Shown: positions 1-62,223, counted from the stretch's first letter. The stretch is 64,000 nucleotides of DNA from Chiloscyllium plagiosum (GCF_004010195.1 NC_057718.1:68310401-68374400), one strand, 5' to 3'. Numbers and translations: made by a program. The notes: a model not told the origin generated them from the sequence alone.

Positions 1-123
1 CTCCCAAGCACTGAGGATGTCACCTAGACAGGGGACGAAACGTTTGCAACAAAAACTTCCAGCTCGGCGAACAGAACCACAGCAACGAGCACCCGAGCTA
101 CAAATCTTCTCACAAACTTTGAA
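1..123 (+). mobile_element. Penelope-like element 3' end with hammerhead motif
   Basis: CTGAGGA(11-17)-stem GTCACCT/AGGGGAC-GAAA-CGTT; the tail gagctacaaatcttctc is shared with the element at 12997-13394. Confidence 0.65.
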
Positions 124-329
124 GTTTAATATCATTTGCATGTTTAGAGATTTTGCCCTCCATACCCATCTGTAAATTGTTCATATGAATCAGAAAAAGC
201 AAGGGTCCCTACATTAATCCCTGGGGAATACTACTTTCAATTTGTCTCCAATTTGAGAAATACCCATATTATCACTCCTCTGTTTCCTATCTTTTAGCCA
301 ACTTCTAACCCATACTGCCAAGGACCCAG

Positions 330-1020
330 AAAGCTGCAACAGGAAGGGACTTGGGGAATACTTGTGAAACACAGATAGCTAGCACACAGGCAGGAGGTAA
401 TCAGGAATGCTAATGGAATGTTGGTCCTTATTTCAAGGGAGTTGGAGTATAAGAGTCGGGAAGTCTTATTGCAATGTACAACACGCTGGTGAGACCACGT
501 CTGGAGTACTGTGAACAGTTTTGCCCCTCTTTTTGCAGAAAATATGTCACTTCATTGGAGACAGTTCAGAGAAGGTTCATTAGGATGGGCCTTGGAATGG
601 AGGGATTGTCTTGTGAGCAAAGGCTAAACAGGTTGGAATTCTGTTCTTTGGAAGTTACAAGAATAGGAGGTGATCTCATTGAGATATATAGGATTCTTAA
701 GGTGCTTGAGGGGTAAATACTGAGAGGATGTTTTCCCTCATGGGAAAGTCTAGGACCAGAGGGCATAGTCTCAGAATAAAGGCACACCAATTTAAGACTG
801 AGATGAGGAGGAATTTCTTCTTTCAGAGGGTTGAGAGTCTTTAGAACACTTTGCCACAGACAGCTGTAGCGACAGAATACTTATATATGTTTAAGGCTGA
901 GATAGATTCCTGATCTTTCGAGTCATCATGGATTATGGTGAAAGTGGATGTTGGTTGATTCTATTGAATGGTGGAGCAGGTTCAAGGGGCTGAATGGCAT
1001 ATACCTGAACCTATTTCTTA
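330..1020 (+). mobile_element. CR1-type LINE 3' fragment
   Basis: ORF 474-716 YNTLVRPRLEYCEQF...LETVQRRFIRM...GDLIEIYRIL is the CR1 ORF2 C-terminus, followed by a 3' UTR. Confidence 0.9.
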
Positions 1021-1107
1021 CAATAGCATTGAAATGAACAGCTGCACCATTTCAAGTATGGAGAAGAAATTTCTCAGTGTTGATCTCTGTCTGTTTCCCA
1101 TGCACAG

Positions 1108-1457
1108 ATCCATTGGCTGATCCAATCCTCATTCGGTATCCAGTGGTCAGCAAGGTTGCAGAGGGTGAAACTGTTGAGTTCCAGTGTGCCATGTACAATG
1201 CTAATGTGATTGACAGTGATGTGCACTGGTACTACCAGCAACAGGGAGTGGTTGATGAACCAGTTTGTGGATGGTACCCTCACCAGGGCCCAGGGTTTTG
1301 ACTATCATGTTCAGCTTTCCAGGAATGTCAGCAGGAACGCTTATAGCCTGAGCCTTGTGAATGCAACTTTCAATGATACTGCTGTGTACCGCTGCTGTGT
1401 ACTACTGTAGTGTGTGGAGCTCCATCTTTGGAACAGGGAACCAGCTCAATGTAACTG
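1108..1457 (+). pseudogene. Germline-joined VJ-type Ig V-set exon with two frameshifts
   Basis: Acceptor tgcacag|AT at 1107/1108 and donor ACTG|gtgagt at 1457/1458 (phase 1/1). Pieces: DPLADPILIRYPVVSKVAEGETVEFQC(1185)AMYNANVIDSDVHW(1227)YYQQ / SNREWLMNQFVDGTLTRAQGFDYHVQLSRNVSRNAYSLSLVNATFNDTAVY / YC(1406)SVWSSIFGTG(1427-1438)NQLNVT. Confidence 0.9.
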
Positions 1458-2234
1458 GTGAGTCGATGAGAGGTAACCCAAGGTCCTTGACCCAGCGACA
1501 CACCTCCAAGTCAGGTCGATGAGTGGCCCAGAGGAGAAGCCAGAGGTGGCAGTGCACCCGTTGCCCCTATCCCTCCAGATGCAAGCAGCTGCGGGCCTGG
1601 AAGGTGCCACCCGGCGAGGGTCAGCGTATCCTACAGATGGCACCGAGTGTTGGCAATGGAGGGAGTGGATGTCTGGGTGGTGGGTGGGATCACGAAGAAG
1701 CAAGCTGCCATATTGTGAATGGTGGAAGCCGCCTGCATGATATTTGAACCCCACTAATTTAAATAACTTGACAGTTTTCCATTACAAATCCAACCCAAGC
1801 CCCGCAGACGGCAGACAGACCTTGAGGAGCAAGGAGACGAGCCTCTGACCCGCTCCCATAGCCACTGCATTGATGCCAAATTATTCTTCAGCCCTGTTAA
1901 AAGAAGTCATTTCAGACTTGAAATGTAACTCTGATTCTCTCTGATGCTGCCAGACCAGCTGTATTTCTCCAGAACTTTCAATTTTACTTCTGATTTCCAA
2001 TATCCACAGTATTTTGCTTCTCCCTGAATGAATGAGCCCGCTTTGAGACATTGAAATGTTCATTGTCTCAGCTATAGGACAATGCAGGATCTATGCTCGA
2101 GAAGGGGGCTAACATAACACTGAATTGGTTGAATGCTTTGGGTACAGGCTGTTTTGAAATGTGAATTGGAAAACATCTGACTGGGAGCAAACATGTTGTG
2201 TGGACACCTCAGGAGGCAGCTGTGAGAACTGAGC

Positions 2235-2356
2235 ATCAGGAATGAAGGGCTTATGCCCGAAATGTCGATTCTCCGGCTCCTGCCTGACATGCTGGGCTTT
2301 TGCAGTGCCACACTTTTCCACCTGATCTGCAGCATCTGCAGTCCTCACTTTCTCCT
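2235..2356 (+). mobile_element. Penelope-derived terminal fragment
   Basis: gaagggcttatgcccgaaatgtcgattctcc...cagcatctgcagtcctcactttctcc; same family as 22595-22726 and 51720-51825. Confidence 0.7.
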
Positions 2357-2679
2357 GTGAGGACAGCTCCAGGCATCCAGCTGCGTGAACTGTGAATGTG
2401 AATTCTGTTTTTCTCTCCACCAGCACTGCCAGACGTCTTGAGTTCCTCCATCATTCCTTGTTTATATCTCTCATTCTTTTAGGTTTTTGATGATTCAGGA
2501 GGAGATAGCCCCACCTTAGGGAAGCCATGGTCAAAGAGTTTATGTTTACTCTTTGGAATGTTCATTGACTTTCAAAATGTTTCTTGTGATTCTTCCTCTG
2601 ATAAATACAATCTGAGTCCAATTGCAGGTTAATTTGCAAAGAAGGTAATGTGACTTATGGGAGCCATTTTGTAAGATTA

Positions 2680-2985
2680 CAGCAGCACCGCTGCCTCACA
2701 CAGCAAGGGATTCAAGTTCAGCTCCAGCCTCAGGCAACTGTCCATGTGGAGTTCGCGTGTCTGCATGGGACTCTCCCAGGTGCTTCGGTTTCCTCCACAA
2801 TCCAAAGATGTGCAGGTTAGGTGAATTGGCCGTGCTAAATTACCCCATAGTCTCCAGGAATGTGCAGACCAGATGGATTAGACATGGTAAATTAAGGGTT
2901 CCAGGAATAGGGTGGGTGGCTCTGGCTGGGGGTTTGATAGGCCAAATGCCCTTTATCTGCACTGTAGGGATTCTGTGAATCTATG
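2680..2985 (+). mobile_element. HE1-type tRNA-derived SINE (degenerate)
   Basis: gcaccgctgcctcacacagc...ccggtttcctccacaatccaaagatgtgcaggttagg-like core shared with other copies in the window. Confidence 0.8.
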
Positions 2986-3016
2986 ATACTATGTTATTTA
3001 CATTCCTCTCTTAAAG

Positions 3017-3125
3017 ATGCAAATGCCCCAGAATGCCTCCAGTCTCCGATCCTAGAACGTGTCACCAAAGGTCACACTGCCCTATTACAGTGCATCATGA
3101 GGAATGGTGCAGTGAAGTGACACCA
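3017..3125 (+). pseudogene. 5' part of a second Ig V-domain exon, truncated
   Basis: Acceptor cctctcttaaag|AT (phase 1). Translates DANAPECLQSPILERVTKGHTALLQC(3091)IMRNGAVK*, aligning with the first exon (QSP/RYP, VTKGHTALLQC/VAEGETVEFQC, MRNGAV/MYNANV). Stop at 3118-3120, then unrelated sequence. Confidence 0.75.
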
Positions 3126-4056
3126 GCATGGCTGAAAGAGATGTTGCCAAAACATTTTGTCTTACCTTTCAGAATGTCAAAATGTTAAGGGACAACAATT
3201 TGTACTGCTTGAGAAAAGGGTGCTCATTGGCTGTCAAATGGACTCTGGTTAGGATATTGCCATAGGGAATGCCTCAGGGAACTATTGTCCCAAATTCTTT
3301 AGCTTAATTCGAAAAGCTCAATGCCTGGACATGTTGCTTTACTCCGCAGAGGACATGTCTCTGAGTTTAAATATATGTTGCTATATTGTAAACCTGATTG
3401 ATTGATCTTAAAGAGCTTGTCAGTCTAATTCTTTGTACACTTGTAGTTGTTCTGTAAGTGCTGTCCAGTTGTGGAATTAGATCTAATATTAGGCATTATG
3501 TCTAAGCAAAAGATAAAATTACTTCAGCAGTGATCAATGATCAAATCCCAGGAATGGTCGGAGCAACTTACTGCAGATGATGGAATCTATACTGAATATT
3601 TTATAAATGCTGGAGATCACAGTGGGTAAGGCAGCTTCTATGGAGCAAAAGCAAGCTAATGTTTTGAGTGTGGATGACTCTTCATCAGAGCCAGAATGGT
3701 TAGTTAATAATAGATTCTTCAGATACAACGCTCAGTGTCATTTTGCAATGATTTGCCCAAACCAAAAAATCAGGTCCCACAAATAACACATGGTAAAGAT
3801 TAGTGATGAATCTGAACAAATTATATTGGTCACCATCAACTTTAGTCCTGTGGAGCACGTACTAGCTCAGGAATTCTTCAAATATGCAGTATTGATTGGT
3901 TGTGTTCCAACTGCATGGTGCGGATTAGTTAAAATGTTATCTTGATTCACAAAGGAGGAAAAATAGGCACAAGGTTAAGAAATACAAAAATATTATTTGC
4001 TTTAGATTTGGTGCTGATAATATATTTAGGTCACTAAAGTTAGTCATATTTCTACA

Positions 4057-4872
4057 TGTTATGGACATGCATTATTATTATTTCTTGCAAGATTTAGATT
4101 TTGAAGGATTGCAGAAAAAGGAATTTATTTTAAGTATTGTGGACATACCTAAACTGGTTTCTTTGACTGTGTATATTGGACATTTTTATTTAATAAAGCT
4201 TCTTAGAAATCACACAATTGGTTTAGCTGTATACTTAGTTATTGATCTGTCTGGGAATGTTTGGAACAGGATCTGATTTGGGGAGATTCTTTATCTGGTT
4301 AAATAGGAGGAAAGCCTGCTAAGGACCGGCAGCGTTGGAGAGAAGCTTGCTATGCACTAACTGCCAAGCTAATCTTTCCCATTTCTGTAAAATAAACCCT
4401 TCACTTGCAAGTAATTGAAGGAGCAAGTTGTGTCTCCGGACTTCAGAGACAACTGTGCATGATTACTAATTTGACGACACATATCAAAACATCAGATTGA
4501 CAAAATCCAGAACATCCCACACTTCATGTTTTTGCCTTCAAGAACAATTATTAGCAATTTTTATTTGCTTCAAATAGCAAATATTTGCAGATAAATTTGT
4601 TTTTCCTCTTTTTCTGAAGAGTGTGTGCTTGCAAATGTATTTTGGGATAAATGTTTATACTTCTATATTATTAACTGTATATGTTAACCAATTATTCCAA
4701 CTTTATTGATTACGTTTTTTGCTTTGATAGTAAACCCTCATTTTTTTTTTTGTGCTGAGCAACCTGATAAATACTTTTGTTTAAAGACTTAAAAGTAAGG
4801 TATTTAATTGATCATCTTGGTATCTGGAAAAGATAGTTTTGTTTATTGTTGTGTCCCACCTCAGTCGTGACA
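4057..4872. mobile_element. Candidate solo LTR (Gypsy-like)
   Basis: TG...CA termini with imperfect inverted ends (tgttatg...cgtgaca). Flanks taca / tatg can be read as a 4-bp TACG TSD after CpG decay. No coding content. Confidence 0.45.
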
Positions 4873-5381
4873 TATGAAATGGTTGAATTGAGTGAGCCAT
4901 TTTATAAACATTATTAAATACTAATGTAGTCTTTAGGGAGATACTTTAGTTGTTGAGTAAAACCTCCACAAAAAGTGCACAAATTAAACTTGAATGAAGC
5001 GTGAAAAGGCAACTATTTTGAAAAGTCAGTTGAAGCGCAGTTTATCCAGTAGAATATCTTAGTTAACAAAACCCGGTAATTCTCATAGAGTTTTAGGCAA
5101 ATTTTAATGACATCAGGTGATAAGAATGTGAGGGAAAAGTATTGGTTTATCGTTATAAAGACAAATTGCTCATCTTACCTATAAGCTTCAGTAATCTTCA
5201 CAGTCAGGAAGAAGAGGTTACAGCCTGAGTGAGTATACAGCCTGGGAAAGTTAGAGGCAATGTGGGAATAAAATTGGTAAATATTTCTTTTCTTTCTCTA
5301 TTTTAAAAGTTTAAAATTCAATAGTATAGTGAAAGATTAATAAGGTAGCAGACTGAGAAATAGTTATCAATCAATCACCTG

Positions 5382-5582
5382 AAGTTTAGTGATTGTGCAC
5401 TTTCAACAGGCTCTCTCTTAAATAGAGCAGAGATGAATCACACCAGTTGAGGTTCAATGGTAATTAACATTTATTAAGCATAGGACACTTAATGAATGTT
5501 AATTACCATTGAATCTTAATTTATGAGTTCATCTCAGCTCTATTAAGAGAGAGCCTGTTGAAAGTGCACAATCACTAAACTT
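5382..5582. repeat. ~200-bp imperfect fold-back palindrome
   Basis: aagtttagtgattgtgcactttcaacaggctctctctt... at 5382 is the reverse complement of ...aagagagagcctgttgaaagtgcacaatcactaaactt ending at 5582; the inner arms ttcaatggtaattaacatt / aatgttaattaccattgaa also pair. Confidence 0.9.
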
Positions 5583-5899
5583 TGCATGGTCCTGGAAGGC
5601 AAGATCACATCCAGAGTGAGACAGAGCCTGAATGTCTATATAATTTGGGGCATTTGGAGGCATCATTGTAAGACAGTGCAGAGGGGATATAGTTTGTAAG
5701 GTGATCTTAACAGCCCAGGATAAGAGGTCCAACACAAAAGAGTAAATTCACTGGAAAACCATGAGTTCATTGGTGATAACTACTAATTTGACTATTCAGT
5801 ATAGGTTACTTTCACATTGAACGAAAATAGGGAAATATTTTGAGGCTACAAACTAAATCAAAAGCATTAAATTTTTAAAAATCAGTTAAGAACTAAGCA

Positions 5900-6700
5900 A
5901 ACAAAATGGAAATGTGTTATAACTGTATGATGTGGGAGCTGGTGGATCATGTTATAGTTCACAGTGACCACATCTGTAGCAAGTGTTGGTTGCTTAAGGA
6001 ACTCTGGCTCAGAGTTGATGAGCTGGAGCCAGATTTTCAAACACTGTGATACATCAGGGAGGGGATGGGTTACCTGGATGCTTTCCGGAGGCAGTCATAC
6101 TCCTTAGAGTAACTACTTCAACTTTGTCAGTGGTCTGGGAAAGGAGGGTATGACTACGAAGAAGGCAGGGAGAGGGATCCAAGAAATAAAGTTGAAGGAG
6201 CATCAGCCCCTGAGCTTATCTTACAGGTTTGAGATTCCTGCTCCCTTTGTAGATGAGAGCAGGGGCTGTACGAGGAATGAGCAATCAGACCAGAGAATGG
6301 TGGCATAGGAGAGTCATCCAAGAAAAGGGGAGGAAAGAGAAATTGATGAGATGCCTAGATAGGATTGACAGTCAGAACCTTCTTTCCAGAGAGAAAATGT
6401 CTAATACTAGAGGTGTGCATTTAAGGTGGGCGAGGAAAGTTCAAAGGCAATGTGAGGGGCAAGTTTGTTTTTTACACAAAGAGTGGTAGGTGACTGGAAT
6501 ATGTTGCCTGAGGTGGTGGTGGAGGTAGATGTGATAGGGGCATTTAAGGGGCTTTTAGGTAAGCACATTAACATGCAAGTAATGGAGGGATATGGACCAA
6601 AGGCAGGATGAAGGGAATAGTTTAATTTTGCATTAGATTAGCACAAAATTGTGGGCTGAAGGGTCCATTTCTGTGCTGTACTGTTCTATGTTCTATCTCA
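5900..6700 (+). mobile_element. CR1 fragments (ORF1 N-terminus joined to a 3' end)
   Basis: CYNCMMWELVDH...DHICSKCWLLKELWLRVDELE zinc-finger/leucine-zipper pattern of CR1 ORF1, then a CR1 3' UTR ending in ctgttctatgttctat. Confidence 0.75.
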
Positions 6701-6784
6701 TTAAGGTTACACCAAAGTCACGTGCCTCTGCTAGTCATCTTAATCTTGTCAAAAATCCCAATACGGACTTCCTTGGTTCTTGAA

Positions 6785-8300
6785 TTACCAAGTGAAAACA
6801 ATAGTGCCTAACACCACTTCTTTCTGTACCTCAAAATGTCCTGGCATATTAACATGCTCCACATTAATTTCACTATTCTCCGTGTCCTTCACCTGAGTGA
6901 ATACCGATGCAAAGTACTCATTTAGAATCTCGCCCACATCCTCTACCTCCAAGCACAAGTTCCCTACTTTATCCTTGAGTGTTCCTACCCTCTCCCTGAT
7001 TATCCATTTGTTTTTAGTGTATGTATAGAATACCTTGGCATTCTCCGCAACCCAACTTGTCAAGGTCATTTCAGAGACCTTTCTCGCTCTTCCTGCTTGA
7101 GTTTGTTTCTGCTTTCTTTATATTTCTCATGGGCTCTGTCCAATTTTAGCTTCCTAAACTTTAAATATGCTTCTTTTTTTCCTTTTGACTAAATTCACAA
7201 CCTCCCTTGTTATCCAAACGTCTGTTTCTTTGCCATCCTTGTCCTTCCTCCTTAATGGATCATGCCGGCCCTGATCTCTCACCAGTAGGTCTTTAAATAA
7301 CTCCCACATGTCAAGTGTGGACTTGCCTGTTAACAGCTCCTCCCAATTAACTCTCCCTTGCTCCTCCCTCACATTGACATAATTTGCCTTCCCCAATTGA
7401 GTCCCTTCCTGCAAGTCCCTTCCCAGTCCTTATTCATAACTATCTTAAAACTTAAGGAATTGTGATCACTATTTACAAAATGCTCTCCCACTGACAGGTC
7501 AGTCACTTGGCCAAGCGCATTAGCCAGTACAAGGTCTAGTATGGCCCTTTCTCTCGTTGGACTATCCACAAACTCTTTCAAGAAATCTCCTTGGATGCAC
7601 TAACAAATTCTGTCCCATCTAAGCCTTTTGCTCTCAGGAAGTCCCAGTCAATATTGGGGAAGGTAAAGTCACCTACTATGACAACCCTGTTGTTCTTGTA
7701 TCTTTCCATAATCTGCTTAGATATTTGTTCCTCAATATTTTGGTGATTGTTGGAGGACCGAGAGTACAATCCCAGATGAGCCCTCCAGTATGTCCTTTCA
7801 GAGTGCAGAAGTGACATTCTTCTTGAATAATAATATAATTTCTGCACCTCCTTTACCTCCCTCTCTACATCATCTAAAGGAACAAAACCCTGGAATGTCA
7901 AGCGGCAGTCCTGTCCTCCTCTTAACAAAATATCTGCATGGTCTCATGTACTGATCCAAGCTGGAAGGTCATCTGCCTTACCCATAATACTCATTGCATT
8001 GAAATAAACACACTTTAGCCCATCAGTCCCATTGTGTTCATTTACCTGTCTCTACCAGTTCTTCCTTTCAAACGTACCGGTCCTAACATCTACCTATCCC
8101 TCACTTCCTCCATTTACTGTACTGCTGCTCTGGTTTCCAGACCCTGCCACTCTAGTTTAAACCCTTCTGAGTAGCACTAGTGAACCTCCCTGAGAGGTTC
8201 CTTAGATGCAACCCTCCCTCAAATACAGGTCACCCAGCCCCAGAAAAGGTGCTAATGATCCAAGAACCTGAAACTCTGCTGTATGCATTATCTCATTAGC
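6785..8300 (-). mobile_element. CR1 ORF2 endonuclease region, degenerate
   Basis: ORF pieces VVIVGDFTFPNIDW, PTRERAILDLVL, SDHNSLSFKI, EILNEYFASVFT. Confidence 0.9.
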
Positions 8301-8304
8301 AACA

Positions 8305-9255
8305 GAGATTTTACTACCCTCAAGATCCGAAGCACGGTCTGGTATTGTTTTGTCTCCCTATATGGCTCATAGTTGGCCCAACGGGGAAGAATGCCGAATG
8401 GGGTATGCATCCAGGACAGAGCATAAATACACCCAGAGAGAGAAGGAAGATTTAGCGGTCATATTTAGAGTCAGGAAGTTCCACCAATTCCTTTTACGGA
8501 TGTAAATTTGTTTTAATTATGAACCATAAGCCTTTGCTCGATCTGGTTGAAGAGGACAAGGTGGTGCCATCCATAACTTCAGGCCAAATTCAGCAACCGA
8601 CTGTAATACGAAGTGTGTATAATTAGAAGTTGCAACATGATCCAGTAGACAAGTAACAAATGTAGAGGCATTGAGCTACTCCCTCTGGCAGATACACCAC
8701 CAGTGGTACTGGCACTGGAAAAGTCCACAATGATTTTAAACTTTCTGGGCAACAATCCAGTCATAGCTGACAATATCAGACTTTGGACACAGAAAGATCT
8801 GGTCCTGGCAAAACTGAAACAGCTGATCATGATGCGGGCCATTACAACCAGAATGGAAACCTTTTTGGACCTGGAGAGAAATGCATATTATTATGGGAGC
8901 AAGAGTGATTGCTTGAATGAAAAGTTGCTGCAATATTATGGCTGAGGTCCACCAGGATCATCCAGAGTTTTCCAAAATGAAGATGTTGTAGAGAATTTAT
9001 GTCTGGTGGCCAGGTCTAGATGCAGACTTAGCCACGTTGGTGGCGAAGTGCCCAGAGTGTCCAAAAGGACAAAAGTTACCACCAACAGCTCCCTCACATT
9101 CATGGGATTGGTTGGGTAAACCCCAGGCTTGGTTACACGTTGACTATGCAGGTCCTTTCATGGGCTTAATGTTCTTAGCCATTGTGGATACCCATGTAAA
9201 GTAGCTGGACGCGCATAGAGTTCATTCATCAAACATGGGGATGACAATAGAGGGT
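8305..9255 (+). mobile_element. Gypsy LTR-retrotransposon pol remnant (RNase H + integrase)
   Basis: YASRT..KYTQREKEDLAVIFRVRKFHQ..HKPL (RNase H); HQDHP...VWWPGLDADL..KCPEC (integrase HHCC); WLHVDYAGPFMG (integrase core); RNase H precedes integrase; many stops. Confidence 0.85.
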
Positions 9256-9306
9256 GGAATTGAATAACAGGTTCCCGTTACTGTGAGGCAGCAGTGCTAA
9301 CTATGC

Positions 9307-9624
9307 AGATTAGATTAGATTACATTACATTACATTACAGTGTGAAACAGGCCCTTCGGCCCAACAAGTCCACACCGACCCGCCGAAGCGTAACCCACCC
9401 CTACATTTACCCCTTACCTAACACTACGGGCAATTTAGCACGGCCAATTCACCTAACCTGCACATTTTTGGACTGTGGGAGGAAACCGGAGCACCCGGAG
9501 GAAACCCACGCAGACACGGGGAGAATGTGCAAACTCCACACAGTCAGTCGCCTGAGGCGGGAATTGAACCCGGGTCTCTGGCGCTGTGAGGCAGCAGTGC
9601 TAACCACTGTGCCACCGTGCCGCC
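9307..9624 (-). mobile_element. HE1-type SINE, full-length, young
   Basis: Reverse complement starts ggcggcacggtggcacagtggttagcactgctgcctcacagcgcc (tRNA-like A/B boxes); CpGs intact; short tandem tail; highly similar to 36886-37200. Confidence 0.92.
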
Positions 9625-9629
9625 AGATC

Positions 9630-12600
9630 TAATAGAAGATTGAAAGACTTTTTTTTAGATAGCTAAAAGGTAAGAGAGAAGCAATAGTGGACATTGACCA
9701 CTGAAAAAGAGGCTGGAGAAGAAGTAATGGGGAACAAAAGATCTTTTGTATCGGTTTTCACAGTAGAATACACCAGCAACATACCAGAACCTCAAGAGGA
9801 TCAGGGGGCAGAAGTCTGTGTAGTTGTCATCACTAAGGAGAAAGTGTTAGGGAAGCTGAAATGTCTGAAGGTGGATAAATCATCCAGACCAAATGTACTA
9901 CACCTCAGAGTTCTGTAGGGGATAGTTGAGGAGATTGTAAGGTCATTGGTGGTGATCTTTCAGGAACCACTGGAGTCAGGGAGGCTTCCAGAGGACTGGA
10001 AAATGGCTAATGTAAAATCCCTGTTTAAGAAGGGAGGGAGACAGAAGACAGGACACTATAGGCTGGTTAGACTGACTTCTGGTTGTTGGTAAGATTTTAG
10101 AGTCTATTATTAAGGATTAGATTGTGGACTACTTTGAAGTGCATGGGAAAATCGAGCTGAATCAGCTTGGCTTCGTTAAGGGGAAGTCAAACCTTAGAAA
10201 TCTGTTAGAATTCTTTGAGGATGTTCTGAGCAAGTTAGACAAAAGAGAGCCACTTGGTGTGATCTATTTGGATTTCCAGAAGGCCTTTGACAAGATGCCA
10301 CATAGGAGGTTGCTAAATAAGATGAGCCCATGGTGTTAAGGGCCAGGTACTGGAATGGATAGAATCTTGGCTGACTGGCAGAAAGCAATGAGTGAAGAAA
10401 AAGGGATAGCAGCCAGTGACTAGTGGTGTTCTGCAAAGATCAGAACTATTCACAACATACATTAACAATATGGACAAAAGAGCTGTGGGCATTGCTGCTA
10501 AATTTGCAGATGACCCACGTATAAATGGAGGGGTGGGTAATGTTGAGGAAGAGGGCAGGCTGCAAAAGGACTTAGCAGGCTAAGTCAGTAGATAAAGAAG
10601 TGGCAGATGGAATCCAATGTGGGAAAATATAAGATTATCCATTTTGGTAGGAAGAATAAAGGCAAAGGCTGTTTTATAAATGGGGAAGGGCATTGGAAAT
10701 CTGAAGCATAAAAGCACTCGGGAGTATTAGTTCAGGATTTCCTTCGGGTTTACATACAGGTTCAGTTGACAGTTAGGAAGACAAATGCAGCGTTAGCATT
10801 CATTTCAAGAGTGATAGAATATAACAGCAAAGATGTACTGCTAAGGCTGTATAAGGCTCTGGTCAGATTCTATTTGGAATTATGGTGACCAGTTTTGGGC
10901 CCTGTGTCTAAAAGAAATGTGCTAGTATTGGAGGATGTCCAGATGACATTTACAAGAATGATCCTGGGAATGAAAAGCTTGTCACATGAGGACTCTGGGT
11001 CTGTGCATAAAGGAGTTTGGAAGGATGAGGTGGGATCTGGTTGAAACTTACAGAATACCGATAGGCCTGGAGAGAGTGAACATGGCAAAGAATATTTCCA
11101 CTTGTTGGAGAGACTAAGACCTGAGGGCACAGCCTCAGGGCATAGCATCCTGACGAACCTATCCCATCAGTCACTGCATCAGAGGTCAGATCAGTTTTCC
11201 TTTGTGTGAATCCAAGGAAACCAGACAGAGTACCAGGCTGTGCACTCAGAGCATGCGCAGATCAAGCGGCAGAGGTCTTTTCAGACATCTTCAACCCCTC
11301 CCTGCAGCAGGCCACTGTCCCTGCATGTTTCAAGAGGGCCAACATCATCCCTGTGCCTAAGAAGGATCATGCAGCATGTCTCAATGATTACCGCCCAGTG
11401 GTTCTAACTTTGGTGGTCATGAAGTGCTTTGAAAGGCTGGTCACTGCATTAATCAACTCCAGCCTCCCCACTACTCTTGACCAACTCCAATTTGCCTATC
11501 AAACCAACAGATCCATGTCAGATGCCTATCACTTGCCCTTCACTCCTCCCTAGAACATCTTGACACCAAGAACAGATTTGTAAGAATCCTACTCATTGAC
11601 TACAGTTCAGCCTTCAACACTATTATCCCCTCAAGACTGATTACTAAATTTAGTGATCTCAGACTAAGCCCCACTCTCTGCAACTATATCCTCAGTTTCC
11701 TGACCCACAGGCCACAATCAGTGAAGATTGGGGTCAATATTTTATCCTCACTAACACTCAACACTGGAGCCCCCCATGGGTGTGTACTCCGCCCCCTACT
11801 GCACTCACTGTACGCCCATGACTGCGTCACCAAATACCAGACTATTGCCATCTACAAGTTCGCTAATGACGCTACTATAGTCGGTTGAATCTCAGATGAC
11901 GATGAAACAGACTACAGACGGGAGGTGGAAGACCTGAAAAAATTGTGCACTGAGAACAACCTAACTCTCAGTGCCGGCAAAACCAAGGAACTTGTTATTG
12001 ACTTTCGGCGGGATGTTATGCATGCCCCCTACACATTAACAGCACAGAGGTGGAATGAATGTAGAGTATCAAGCTCCTGGGAATGGTCATCCACAACAAG
12101 CTTTCTTGGTCTCTTCATGTGGATACATTGGTTACAAAGGTCCAACAACATCTTTTCTTCCTCAGGCAGCTGAGGAAATTTGGCATGACAGCGAATAACC
12201 TTGCTAACTTTTATAGATGCACCATCGAGAGCATTCTGTCTGGATGTATCACTATCTGGTTTGGCAACTGTACCATTCAAAATCGGAGATGGTTACAGAG
12301 AGTGGTGAACTCGGCCTGGATAATCACAAAGGCTAACCTCCCATCCATAGAATCCATCTACCAGGCCCGCTGTCAAGGAAAGGCCACCAGCATTCTCAAA
12401 GATCCATCCCCCCGGCAATGCTTTACTACAACCTCTACCATCAGGGAGAAGATACAGAAGCCTGAACACACGTTCCAGCCGGTTTTGAAACAGTTTCTGC
12501 CCTACTGTTTTTAGAATATTGAATGGACTCACAAACCCTTAGCAAATATTCACCTGTAACTGTGTTTTGGTTTTTGCCATTTTTAACCTATTATTTACTG

Positions 12601-12930
12601 TTGTTTAACTCTGCGATCTGCCTGTATTGCTCGCAAGACAAAGCTTTTCACTGTGCCTCAGTACACATGACAATAATTCAATTCAATTCAGAATGAAGGG
12701 ATGGCCCTTTAGTGCTGAGATAAGGTGGAAGTTCTTCTGCTTGAGGATGGGGAATCTGTGGAGGAAAGGTTTCAGAGGCCAAGTTACTGAATGTATTTAA
12801 GATAAATGAGGATCAAGGGTTACAGGGAGAGGTAGGAGATTGAGGTTAAGAAACATACCAACCCATGATTGAATGGTGAAACAGACTCCATGGGTCAAAT
12901 GGCCTAATTCTGCTCCTATGTCTTATAAAA
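9630..12930 (+). mobile_element. CR1 ORF2 RT and 3' end, split by the Rex1 insertion
   Basis: VIYLDFQKAFDKMPH RT motif. The host reads gcacagcctcag (~11138) and resumes cagaatgaaggg (~12689). Confidence 0.88.
11140..12690 (+). mobile_element. Rex1/Babar-clade LINE, 5'-truncated
   Basis: GCALRACADQAAEVFSDIFN..IIPVPKK..LNDYRPVVLT..VMKCFERLV; C-terminal LFFLRQLRKFGM..NFYRCTIESILSGCITIWFG; (ATTCA)n tail. Confidence 0.88.
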
Positions 12931-12996
12931 ATCTCGCTGATAGTTGCATATGTGCTGAACATGATTTCATGGAGCTAATAGAAGGGGATAATAATT

Positions 12997-13394
12997 CTGG
13001 ATGTAAGTTTGCTTGCTGAGCTGGAAGATTCATTTTCACACATTTCATCACCATACTAGGTAACATCATCAGTGAGCCTCTGGTTAAGCACTGGTGTTAT
13101 GTCCTGCTTTCTATTTATATGTTTATAAGAAAGCGGGACATAACACCAACGCTTCACCAGAGGCTCACTGATAATGTAAGGCGGTTCCTGATGAAGGGCT
13201 TTTGCCCGAAATGTCAATTTTCCTGCTCCTCAGATGCTGCCTGACCTGCTGTGCTTTTCCAGCGCCACTCTAATCTTGTCACTGATCATGTTATCTAGTA
13301 TGGTGATGAAACATCTGAAAATGAACCTTCCAGATCAGCGAGCAAACTTACATCCAGAAACTCAACCTGAGCTACAAATCTTCTCCAAACTAGT
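12997..13394. mobile_element. Palindromic Penelope-derived insertion with a second Penelope fragment nested inside
   Basis: Arms ttctggatgtaagtttgc... and ...gcaaacttacatccagaa are inverted; 9-bp TSD ataataatt (12988-12996, 13395-13403); nested fragment ~13175-13280 flanked by cactgat. Confidence 0.75.
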
Positions 13395-13403
13395 ATAATA
13401 ATT

Positions 13404-13975
13404 ATCAGAGGGCTCCACCATTTCCTACTGTAAGCCTTCCATTGGCATGCAAAATTAAAGTGTTTCCTTGTGGCAGAATGCGCTGCATGGAACCCAACTC
13501 AGCCTTCATCAGGGTTTCATTAATGGAATAATTAACCAAGGTTGCAGAAGGTAGTTTGTGTTCAGTTAGTATCCTGTAATGCATACAGTCCTTGAATAAA
13601 TCAGGAACATGAGCATCAGGGATATAGGCATCATGATAGCCTCCAGGGTTGAAAATGTGTTGCTGGAAAAGCGCAGCAGGTCAGGCAGCATCCTGGGAAC
13701 AGGAGAATCGATGTTTCAGGCATAAGCCCTTCTTCAGGAATCAGAAATGGCCTCCAGGGTGCCTGGTTCAGATTTCCAAGAATGGGGATGGAATTCCATT
13801 TGATGGAATGTGGTTCCTTCCTGTTGATGAGCCAACTATGATATGTCGCACTCAGCTGTACAGTCGATAGTGCCTTGCACATGGGGTTAGACTGCTATGT
13901 TGGCAAAGCCTATTACCTGGGCTGCAGCATCTCGTCATGGCAAATAACATTGAAGTACTATATCTTAGAAGTCTG
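13404..13975 (-). mobile_element. PIF/Harbinger DDE transposase relic
   Basis: Colinear motifs on the minus strand: GFANIAV*PHVQGTIDCT, LINRKEPHSI, HPGGYHDAYI, NYLLQPWLIIPLMKP, HAAHSATR, GGAL. Interrupted by a Penelope fragment (13650-13749) with 11-bp TSD gcctccagggt. Confidence 0.85.
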
Positions 13976-14344
13976 TGCCAGAGAATGATCATGAATAGAG
14001 AAAGTATTTCCAAAAATCCATGCAGGAAATCTTATGACAAGCATAAAAGATAGAAGTGGAGACTAAAACTTGAAATTAGATTAAGAATGGACAATGGAAT
14101 AAAGGCAAGAGACTGGATGAAGTCTTCATGACCCTACTATCTGGCAATAAATTTATAAGAAAAGTAATACAAAAGGAATTAGAGAGTTTGGAATATATTC
14201 TGATGTATCAGTTTTGACAAAGAATTGGATTAGCACTGAAAAATTATTTGAGACTGAGGGTAATGCAAATTATAATGCAAAGGGGAGGATTGTTGTTCAA
14301 TGTTTTGAATAATGACTGGATAATGCAAATATTAACATTGTTTT

Positions 14345-61407: not shown

Positions 61408-62223
61408 TGTTGAAACTTTATTGCTGGAACAGCACAGCAGGTCAGGCAGCATCCAGGGAACAGGAGATTTGACGTTTCGGGCACAGGCCCAGAAGGGCCT
61501 GTGCCCGAAACGTCGAATCTCCTGTTCCCTGGATGCTGCCTGACCTGCTGTGCTGTTCCAGCAATAAAGTTTCAACTTTGATCTCCAGCATCTGCAGACC
61601 TCACTTTCTCCNNNNNNNNNNNNNNNNNNNNNNNNNNNNNNNNNNNNNNNNNNNNNNNNNNNNNNNNNNNNNNNNNNNNNNNNNNNNNNNNNNNNNNNNN
61701 NNNNNNNNNNNNNNNNNNNNNNNNNNNNNNNNNNNNNNNNNNNNNNNNNNNNNNNNNNNNNNNNNNNNNNNNNNNNNNNNNNNNNNNNNNNNNNNNNNNN
61801 NNNNNNNNNNNNNNNNNNNNNNNNNNNNNNNNNNNNNNNNNNNNNNNNNNNNNNNNNNNNNNNNNNNNNNNNNNNNNNNNNNNNNNNNNNNNNNNNNNNN
61901 NNNNNNNNNNNNNNNNNNNNNNNNNNNNNNNNNNNNNNNNNNNNNNNNNNNNNNNNNNNNNNNNNNNNNNNNNNNNNNNNNNNNNNNNNNNNNNNNNNNN
62001 NNNNNNNNNNNNNNNNNNNNNNNNGGTTGGTGGGGTGGTAGGTGGGGGCCAGTGGGGTTCTGTCCTGGTGGCGGTTGGAGGGGCGGGGCTCAAGGGCGGA
62101 GGAGCGGGAAGTGGAGGAGATGCGGTGGAGGGCACCCTCGACCACGTCGGGGGGGAAAATTGCGGTCCTTGAAGAAGGAGGCCATCTGTGTTGTACGTAT
62201 TTTGAACTGGTCCTCCTGGGAGC
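61408..62223. mobile_element. Young Penelope insertion with terminal palindrome, spanning the assembly gap
   Basis: 10-bp TSD atctcatgga (61398-61407, 62224-62233); 82-bp inverted arms 61409-61490 / 61495-61576; minus-strand Penelope coding piece (RTPLAPTYHPTN) after the gap. Confidence 0.82.
61612..62024. other. Assembly gap (413 N)
   Basis: Run of N. Confidence 1.

Follow-up and report, generated by a model that had tools for sequence, protein, structure and literature searches.

A pseudogene fragment with two V exons in Chiloscyllium plagiosum, from a family of multi-V receptor genes in sharks and rays

What kind of gene carries two V-type immunoglobulin exons in series, and is the copy at this position of the Chiloscyllium plagiosum genome a working one? 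The window, meaning the whole stretch of DNA analyzed here, is 64,000 nucleotides long and corresponds to C9:68310401-68374400 of the 3.56-Gb genome, C9 being the chromosome that carries it. The locus is made up of the following features, in window coordinates.

1049..1107, plus strand: conserved intronic sequence of about 60 bases in front of the A exon, where clear homology to the family begins on the left
1108..1457, plus strand: pseudogenised V exon of type A that ends in a joined J-like motif (FGTGNQLNVT); both boundaries are in phase 1
Between 1235..1236, plus strand: 11-bp deletion relative to paralogues, the first frameshift (alignment with four paralogous A exons, columns 143-153)
1396..1408, plus strand: 13-bp imperfect tandem duplication of 1383-1395, the second frameshift (alignment columns 314-326)
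1458..3016, plus strand: former A-B2 intron, GT...AG; pieces of it align collinearly with the corresponding introns in two paralogues
3017..3115, plus strand: 5' portion of a B2-type V exon, 33 codons that cover strands A to B and CDR1
3116..3555, no strand: single-copy sequence unrelated to the family, at the right-hand breakpoint (query bases 1-440 match only themselves)

Two V exons and their damage

We examined the splice signals and reading frames of both exons. The first exon is bordered by AG at 1106-1107 and GT at 1458-1459, with G at 1457 as its last base; the second follows AG at 3015-3016 and begins at 3017 with AT GCA AAT GCC. Because G 1457 and AT 3017 together make GAT (D), the junction reads ...NQLNVT-D-ANAPECLQSPILERVTKGHTALLQCIMRNGAV, followed by K and the stop codon TGA at 3118-3120. 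The initial annotation was therefore correct that donor 1458 and acceptor 3016 are phase-compatible and form the ...NQLNVT joint, whereas its end for the second exon, 3125, lies beyond this in-frame stop. The acceptor context TTAAAG is retained in an alignment of the second exon with four paralogous B-type exons.

The first exon (1108-1457) gives V-type Ig strands in three successive frames that end in YYCSVWSSIFGTGNQLNVT, a V end with a joined J-like G-x-G motif. As a result of the 11-bp deletion and the 13-bp duplication, both called against four paralogous A exons from the same genome, the frame set by the acceptor ends at TGA 1299-1301; the second frame stops at TAG 1408-1410, and NQLNVT lies in the third. 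The first frame piece shows 75-79% amino acid identity to the C. plagiosum gene models P0004, P0017, P0026, and P0037, and the second 69-75% to the same models (E down to 8e-42). At the DNA level, the exon is 81% identical to an intact A exon over 365 aligned bases and up to 89% identical to its nearest copy over 341 columns. The Pfam V-set profile (PF07686) matches the two ORF pieces with E-values of 0.0029 and 0.0002 and scores of 18.2 and 22.0 bits, under the gathering cut-off of 26 because the frameshifts split the domain.

Similarity of the second exon to the four B-type paralogues is good up to ...GCAGTGA (3115) and then disappears, leaving only about 99 bases (about 33 codons) before the TGA. 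When scanned alone, its 33-residue peptide matched no Pfam family; the peptide is nevertheless 75-78% identical to the start of V-set domains in full-length relatives, and its homology to the first strands of strong V-set domains such as those of P0012 holds. By these alignments, the second exon is a V exon and not a C1 domain, as first proposed: it is homologous to V-set starts, and window 1-14050 contains no C1-set match in Pfam. The pairing of the two exons is also more than chance, given 39 matches elsewhere in the genome, a conserved acceptor, and collinearity over 1072-3115.

With A frameshifted twice and B2 cut, an open reading frame across each V exon is absent from the window. The two A frameshifts, together with the truncated B2 and its TGA, therefore identify the locus as a non-functional pseudogene member of a multi-V family, and this copy is likely inert. 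A live tandem-V gene at this position would account for the intact and phase-compatible splice signals at 1106-1107, 1458-1459, and 3015-3016, but it would have to accommodate two frameshifts, stops at 1299 and 1408, and a second exon that ends after about 33-34 codons. A tblastn search with six full-length relatives of the window plus 20 kb upstream (84 kb) matched only the two known places at meaningful E-values, and leader, N, B1, transmembrane (TM), and tail exons were not found there.

Contigs of guessed RNA origin weigh slightly against a live gene as well, although contigs cannot prove that transcription is absent. We aligned contigs from four runs, whose RNA nature is guessed, to window 1000-3200 at 80% likeness. 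Over the A exon, the contigs disagree with the window at numerous sites, and the 13-bp duplication is missing from them; they therefore come from paralogues or orthologues. Every contig over the listed variant positions carried paralogue-type letters, and the assembled paralogous or orthologous sequence aligned without the 13 bases at 1396. These alignments end at 1104 and 1457, and no 1457-to-3017 joint occurs among the joints listed (15 of 61) for contigs of the four guessed-RNA runs. Taken together, these results make a live gene at the window locus very improbable.

Among the 87 ORFs of 55 codons or more in window 1-14050, Pfam placed V-set in the A exon only. The remaining weak matches were to retroelement domains or, as we read them, due to chance; the retroelement fragments span window 7581-12511 overall and include the following.

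7581-7943, minus strand: endonuclease/reverse transcriptase fragment
8272-8502: RNase H-like fragment
8992-9201: integrase zinc-binding fragment
10121-11885, plus strand: RVT_1 pieces

More retroelement-like ORFs occupy the rest of the window, and a run of 413 N lies at 61612-62024.

The multi-V family and its chromosomal cluster

Protein database searches place the fragment in a family confined, among the hits, to sharks and rays. The A domain retrieved 46 longer proteins, all from these two groups, and a search with a full-length member returned 114 hits, every one of them elasmobranch (E <= 1e-10); chimaeras and bony vertebrates account for 0 of these 114 in a word-based search that distant relatives could escape. 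The proteins are computed gene models from RefSeq and other automatic annotation, under mutually inconsistent names (IGSF2/3-like, SIRP-alpha-like, pIgR-like, perlecan-like, Ig heavy chain-like, and uncharacterized). Three examples are cited repeatedly below.

P0012: Chiloscyllium punctatum, 591 aa
P0013: Rhincodon typus, 594 aa
P0026: C. plagiosum, 476 aa

The models contain about 3-8 VJ-type V domains in series, one TM helix, and a tyrosine-motif tail. When the domains of all 46 were typed by blastp, with N, B, S, and A domains as references, three forms recurred: N-B-A-TM, N-B-A-B-TM, and S/B strings followed by B-A-TM. Domain number reaches 7 in C. plagiosum and 9 in a single model from Cetorhinus. 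An A domain is followed directly by a B domain in 17 of the 46 models, from about 14 shark and ray species. In family models, the counterpart of the window's A exon is the third, or membrane-proximal, V domain, and that of the B2 fragment is the fourth. At the A-B joint, P0013 reads ...QLNVT-VANAPVLLQSP..., and both the junction phase and the surrounding residues (...NVT | xANxP...) are common to the window and the family models. Two pairs of models, P0009/P0022 (Hemiscyllium) and P0014/P0030 (Heptranchias), differ only by the fourth domain, so B2 is an optional cassette in the models; the B2 exon would thereby yield N-B-A-B-TM and N-B-A-TM isoforms.

One exon encodes each V domain of the family together with its joined J-like G-x-G motif; constant domains are absent. 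Pfam found only V-set and overlapping Ig profiles on the ectodomains; four models scanned in this way scored 131-212 bits for V-set with no C1-set match, P0012 showing 4 V-set stretches (E 2.2e-63). The closest solved structures by sequence are antibody V domains. In the Atlas, the whole protein falls in its own cluster of 100 'uncharacterized' members, followed by generic V-set ITIM receptors.

These domains bear on a reading in which the fragment is an Ig/TCR-type segment outside the multi-V family, either a V that precedes C1 or a doubly rearranging NAR-TCR-like pair. The J-like motif and the closeness to antibody V domains favor such a segment, but a single exon holds the V and J-like parts without a break, at this locus as in every paralogue, the next exon is V rather than C1, window 1-14050 lacks a C1-set match, and the relatives have no constant domain and close with a TM helix and a tyrosine-motif tail. 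We regard the probability of an Ig/TCR-type segment as practically negligible. The contrast drawn at the outset with IgL/TCR and with NAR-TCR is upheld by the same exon structure, V-J contiguous in one exon and V in the next.

The tails follow one uncharged hydrophobic helix and carry TVYATV, LYYADI, and TEYATI; or IVYTTV and SEYAVI; or ADYENV and SVYSDL. The ITIM consensus is S/I/V/L-x-Y-x-x-I/V/L and that of ITSM is T-x-Y-x-x-V/I; Y-x-N motifs are also known. By these consensus patterns, the tail motifs appear to fit ITIM, ITSM, and Y-x-N. From a reading of these motifs, the type I membrane proteins of the family are predicted to act as inhibitory leukocyte receptors that recruit SH2 phosphatases. 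Pfam DUF4578 scored under its cut-off on the tails, and the tail alone gave best Atlas scores of 0.80-0.83 (C1orf162, LST1, and TLT-1), which we treat as leads only.

In P0012, P0013, and P0026, the V domains adjoin with almost no linker (...QLNVT then DPLADPV... or ANVPVLL...). Neighboring domains of one chain could therefore not pair face to face in the manner of VH-VL; V-V pairing between chains is a matter of speculation.

We then located the family in the genome. An intact A exon, used as a protein query, retrieved 138 V-exon matches among 150 scored candidates: 111 on C9 at 2.02-4.26 Mb, 25 on other contigs, and 2 that are the window itself. The cluster lies 64 Mb from the window (C9:68.31 Mb) on the same chromosome. 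The second exon leads to the same place, as bases 3000-3125 (126 bases) have 39 other genome matches (E 1.7e-25 to 2.4e-13), 37 of which are on C9 at 2.07-4.26 Mb.

Sixteen of the cluster exons are A-type (83-100% identity). Downstream, a TM exon follows within 0.5-2.6 kb in 12 of the 16, a B2 exon in 2 (one intact, one pseudo), and nothing recognizable in 2. Since B2 follows so few A exons, the window copies the rarer A-B2 type. The intact case is an apparently intact gene on the minus strand at C9:4.046-4.083 Mb with the exon order N, B1, A, B2, TM; its exons correspond to P0026 and the longer form of that model.

C9 4082748-4082362, minus strand: N exon
C9 4069774-4069379, minus strand: B1 exon
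C9 4065834-4065484, minus strand: A exon
C9 4061296-4060946, minus strand: B2 exon, open over 117 codons
C9 4051256-4051116, minus strand: TM exon
C9:4208758-4209134: full-length B2 pseudo-exon of a second gene, with frameshifts and a stop, between the A (C9:4206387) and TM exons

The B2 exon of the intact gene is 93% identical to the fourth domain of P0012. In the second gene, the TM exon downstream of the A exon is 95% identical to the TM of P0037, so this is probably the gene of P0037, a model that has no domain after A. The parent gene with at least two similar VJ-type domains in series that was initially postulated is thus supported by both the models and the intact gene. An intact paralogue that joins the two exon types also exists, as the C9:4.046-4.083 Mb gene and the 17 models with A then B demonstrate.

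Further groups of V exons occur at C39:27.68-27.81 Mb (6 matches), C25:45.14-45.25 Mb (5), and C25 44.29 Mb (1). They show 27-43% identity to the A domain and may be other V-gene families or antigen-receptor loci. Two V-exon matches, C9:2074865-2075206 and C101085:14018-14335, sit within 'open frames' of 1511 and 1466 residues, which are probably N runs or masked sequence rather than real long ORFs.

Origin and age of the fragment

How did an A-B2 pair come to lie so far from the cluster? Family homology begins at 1049 in one paralogue (r42), at 1072 in the intact gene, and at 1100 in others. The intact gene is collinear with window 1072-1480 around its A exon, with 1884-1996, 2051-2229, and 2355-2504 in pieces of its A-B2 intron, and with 2994-3115 at the start of its B2. 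The gene at C9:4206387 is likewise collinear across A, intron, and B2, and r42 matches window 1642-2243 and 2356-3115. Overall, the window introns show 68-75% identity to paralogues. On the right, 440 unique bases separate the end of homology from a dispersed repeat that begins at about 3556; neither end of the fragment showed a target-site or transposon signature.

Two short dispersed repeats, at about 2243-2356 and 2684-2851, lie in the former intron and have many copies in paralogous regions. They are likely SINE-like elements, and the contig depth summed over them is very high in each of the four runs (up to about 4.5e5).

We considered an origin as a retrocopy, which the retained intron rules out in favor of a genomic copy. 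It is highly probable, in our assessment, that window 1049-3115 is a non-functional pseudogene fragment, likely a partial DNA-level copy from the cluster 64 Mb away that then decayed. The source would be a multi-V receptor gene of the C9 family cluster, and the copied piece would run from the third V exon (A) through the adjoining intron into the fourth V exon (B2), of which it includes ~99 bases at the 5' end. On this scheme, the genomic copy would have arrived incomplete, and decay would have followed at its present position.

Phylogenetic trees give an indication of age. On the DNA tree, the window A exon is an outlier to the 16 cluster copies, whose own branching is star-like, shallow, and poorly resolved; the end branch of the window exon is 0.12, against a median of 0.037. 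The protein tree was built from 40 distinct A domains, with the window exon read through and X placed at the two breaks. There, the window A belongs to a clade of 17 orectolobiform rows, which is strongly supported, and not to the supported clade of 12 hemiscylliid (Chiloscyllium and Hemiscyllium) rows. This position, within Orectolobiformes but outside the A exons of the bamboo-shark family, suggests that the copy is old. The A domains on this tree group by lineage rather than by gene type, suggesting homogenization (concerted evolution) or rapid birth-and-death in the cluster. An isolated copy would escape homogenization within the cluster, and the dating is therefore uncertain.

The same observations can be read in another way, with the fragment as what is left of a multi-V gene that was once complete at this position and whose other exons were deleted or eroded. 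The age of the copy, an outlier on both trees, and introns merely 68-75% identical to paralogues would leave time for such loss, and weak collinear matches reach upstream to window -435. Those matches, a few with r42 between window -435 and 915, could mean that a longer segment was copied, but they overlap dispersed repeats and are possibly coincidental. Against a remnant in place, the 84 kb searched hold no trace of the N, B1, TM, and tail exons, while the equally old A exon is still easily recognized, and the right-hand end switches abruptly to unique DNA inside an exon. We therefore consider in-place decay of a full gene unlikely and favor a partial copy that arrived incomplete.

Comparison with known receptor families

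The window locus itself is an ordinary dead fragment, an inert relic of little importance, and its value is as a pointer to the parent family. It differs from the elasmobranch multi-V models in being frameshifted, truncated, separated from the other exons, and 64 Mb from the cluster. The suggestion that it might belong to a poorly described cartilaginous-fish multi-V family stands in that a multi-V family exists in sharks and rays; the family is already public in RefSeq under automatic names, and so is unnamed rather than unseen. We found no description of a multi-VJ receptor family of cartilaginous fish in open-access papers or preprints, and an account in a subscription journal could exist. 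NITR-like receptors are so far unreported in cartilaginous fish, and more may emerge as genomes improve (PMC6795676).

Sharks and rays thus appear to carry a very large cluster of receptors with inhibitory-type tails, built only from antibody-like, germline-joined VJ domains. We propose tentatively, at a little less than an even chance, that this is an immune receptor system shared across elasmobranchs and not yet described, in which a 2.3-Mb cluster of more than 100 non-rearranging VJ exons encodes receptors of about 3-8 V domains, with cassette V exons, ITIM/ITSM tails, and birth-and-death or concerted evolution. If so, it would correspond in cartilaginous fish to NITR, KIR, and LILR, and its intact single-exon VJ genes would be a further pool bearing on the origin of antigen receptors. 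A curated account of the family (expression, ligands, and signaling) would fill the NITR-like gap in cartilaginous fish.

Several systems share individual features with the family. MDIR of skate are described as having several V-type domains of a CD300/TREM/pIgR-like kind (PMC3031540). On that description, MDIR and pIgR/CD300 are alike in being cartilaginous-fish immune-type receptors with several V-type domains, whereas the multi-V family has antibody-like V domains with a J-like motif. MDIR-named proteins make up 0 of the 46 A-domain hits and 0 of the 114 full-length hits, and the family is probably not MDIR.

Shark UrIg and UrIg2 have non-rearranging single-exon VJ domains plus C1-type domains, and recombinant UrIg2 V-C1-C2-C3 is described as a disulfide-linked dimer; the same paper describes NAR-TCR as two V domains in series, both rearranging, on a C domain (PMC12227049). 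UrIg and UrIg2 share the single-exon VJ but are unlike the multi-V family, which is all-V and membrane-bound with signaling tails. NAR-TCR shares two V domains in series but differs in its rearranging V and its C domain. We accordingly rejected an identity with UrIg/UrIg2, for their VJ plus C1-type domains, and one with NAR-TCR, for its rearranging V domains and C domain (PMC12227049).

The EWI subfamily (IGSF2/CD101, IGSF3, IGSF8, and PTGFRN) resembles the multi-V family in its strings of V-type domains in one chain. EWI proteins are weak structural neighbors in the Atlas (TM 0.32-0.36), and the Ig_IgSF3 profile is precomputed for 4 of the 46 models. EWI genes are conserved single genes whose products have short tails not known to contain ITIMs, whereas the multi-V family forms an extensive cluster that is specific to its lineage, turns over fast, and encodes tyrosine-motif tails. 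SIRP-alpha, from which several of the automatic names derive, is alike in its V with J-like end and its ITIM-type tail. It has an N-terminal V domain with a J-like end, a V-C1-C1 architecture, and a tail with several ITIM-type tyrosines. The models differ in having V-type domains only, by blastp typing and by Pfam on four of them.

To our knowledge, NITR do not undergo somatic rearrangement. They are presented as a multigene family of bony fish, type I with V domains and mostly ITIM tails, and with one or two Ig domains (PMC2442602). NITR and the multi-V family are alike as multigene type I receptors with V domains and ITIM tails; by description, the multi-V family is set apart by its about 3-8 V domains rather than one or two Ig domains and by its occurrence in sharks and rays only (114 of 114 hits). 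As far as the motifs tell, the family resembles the inhibitory IgSF multigene families NITR, KIR/LILR, and SIRP, from which it differs in consisting solely of VJ-type V domains in series.
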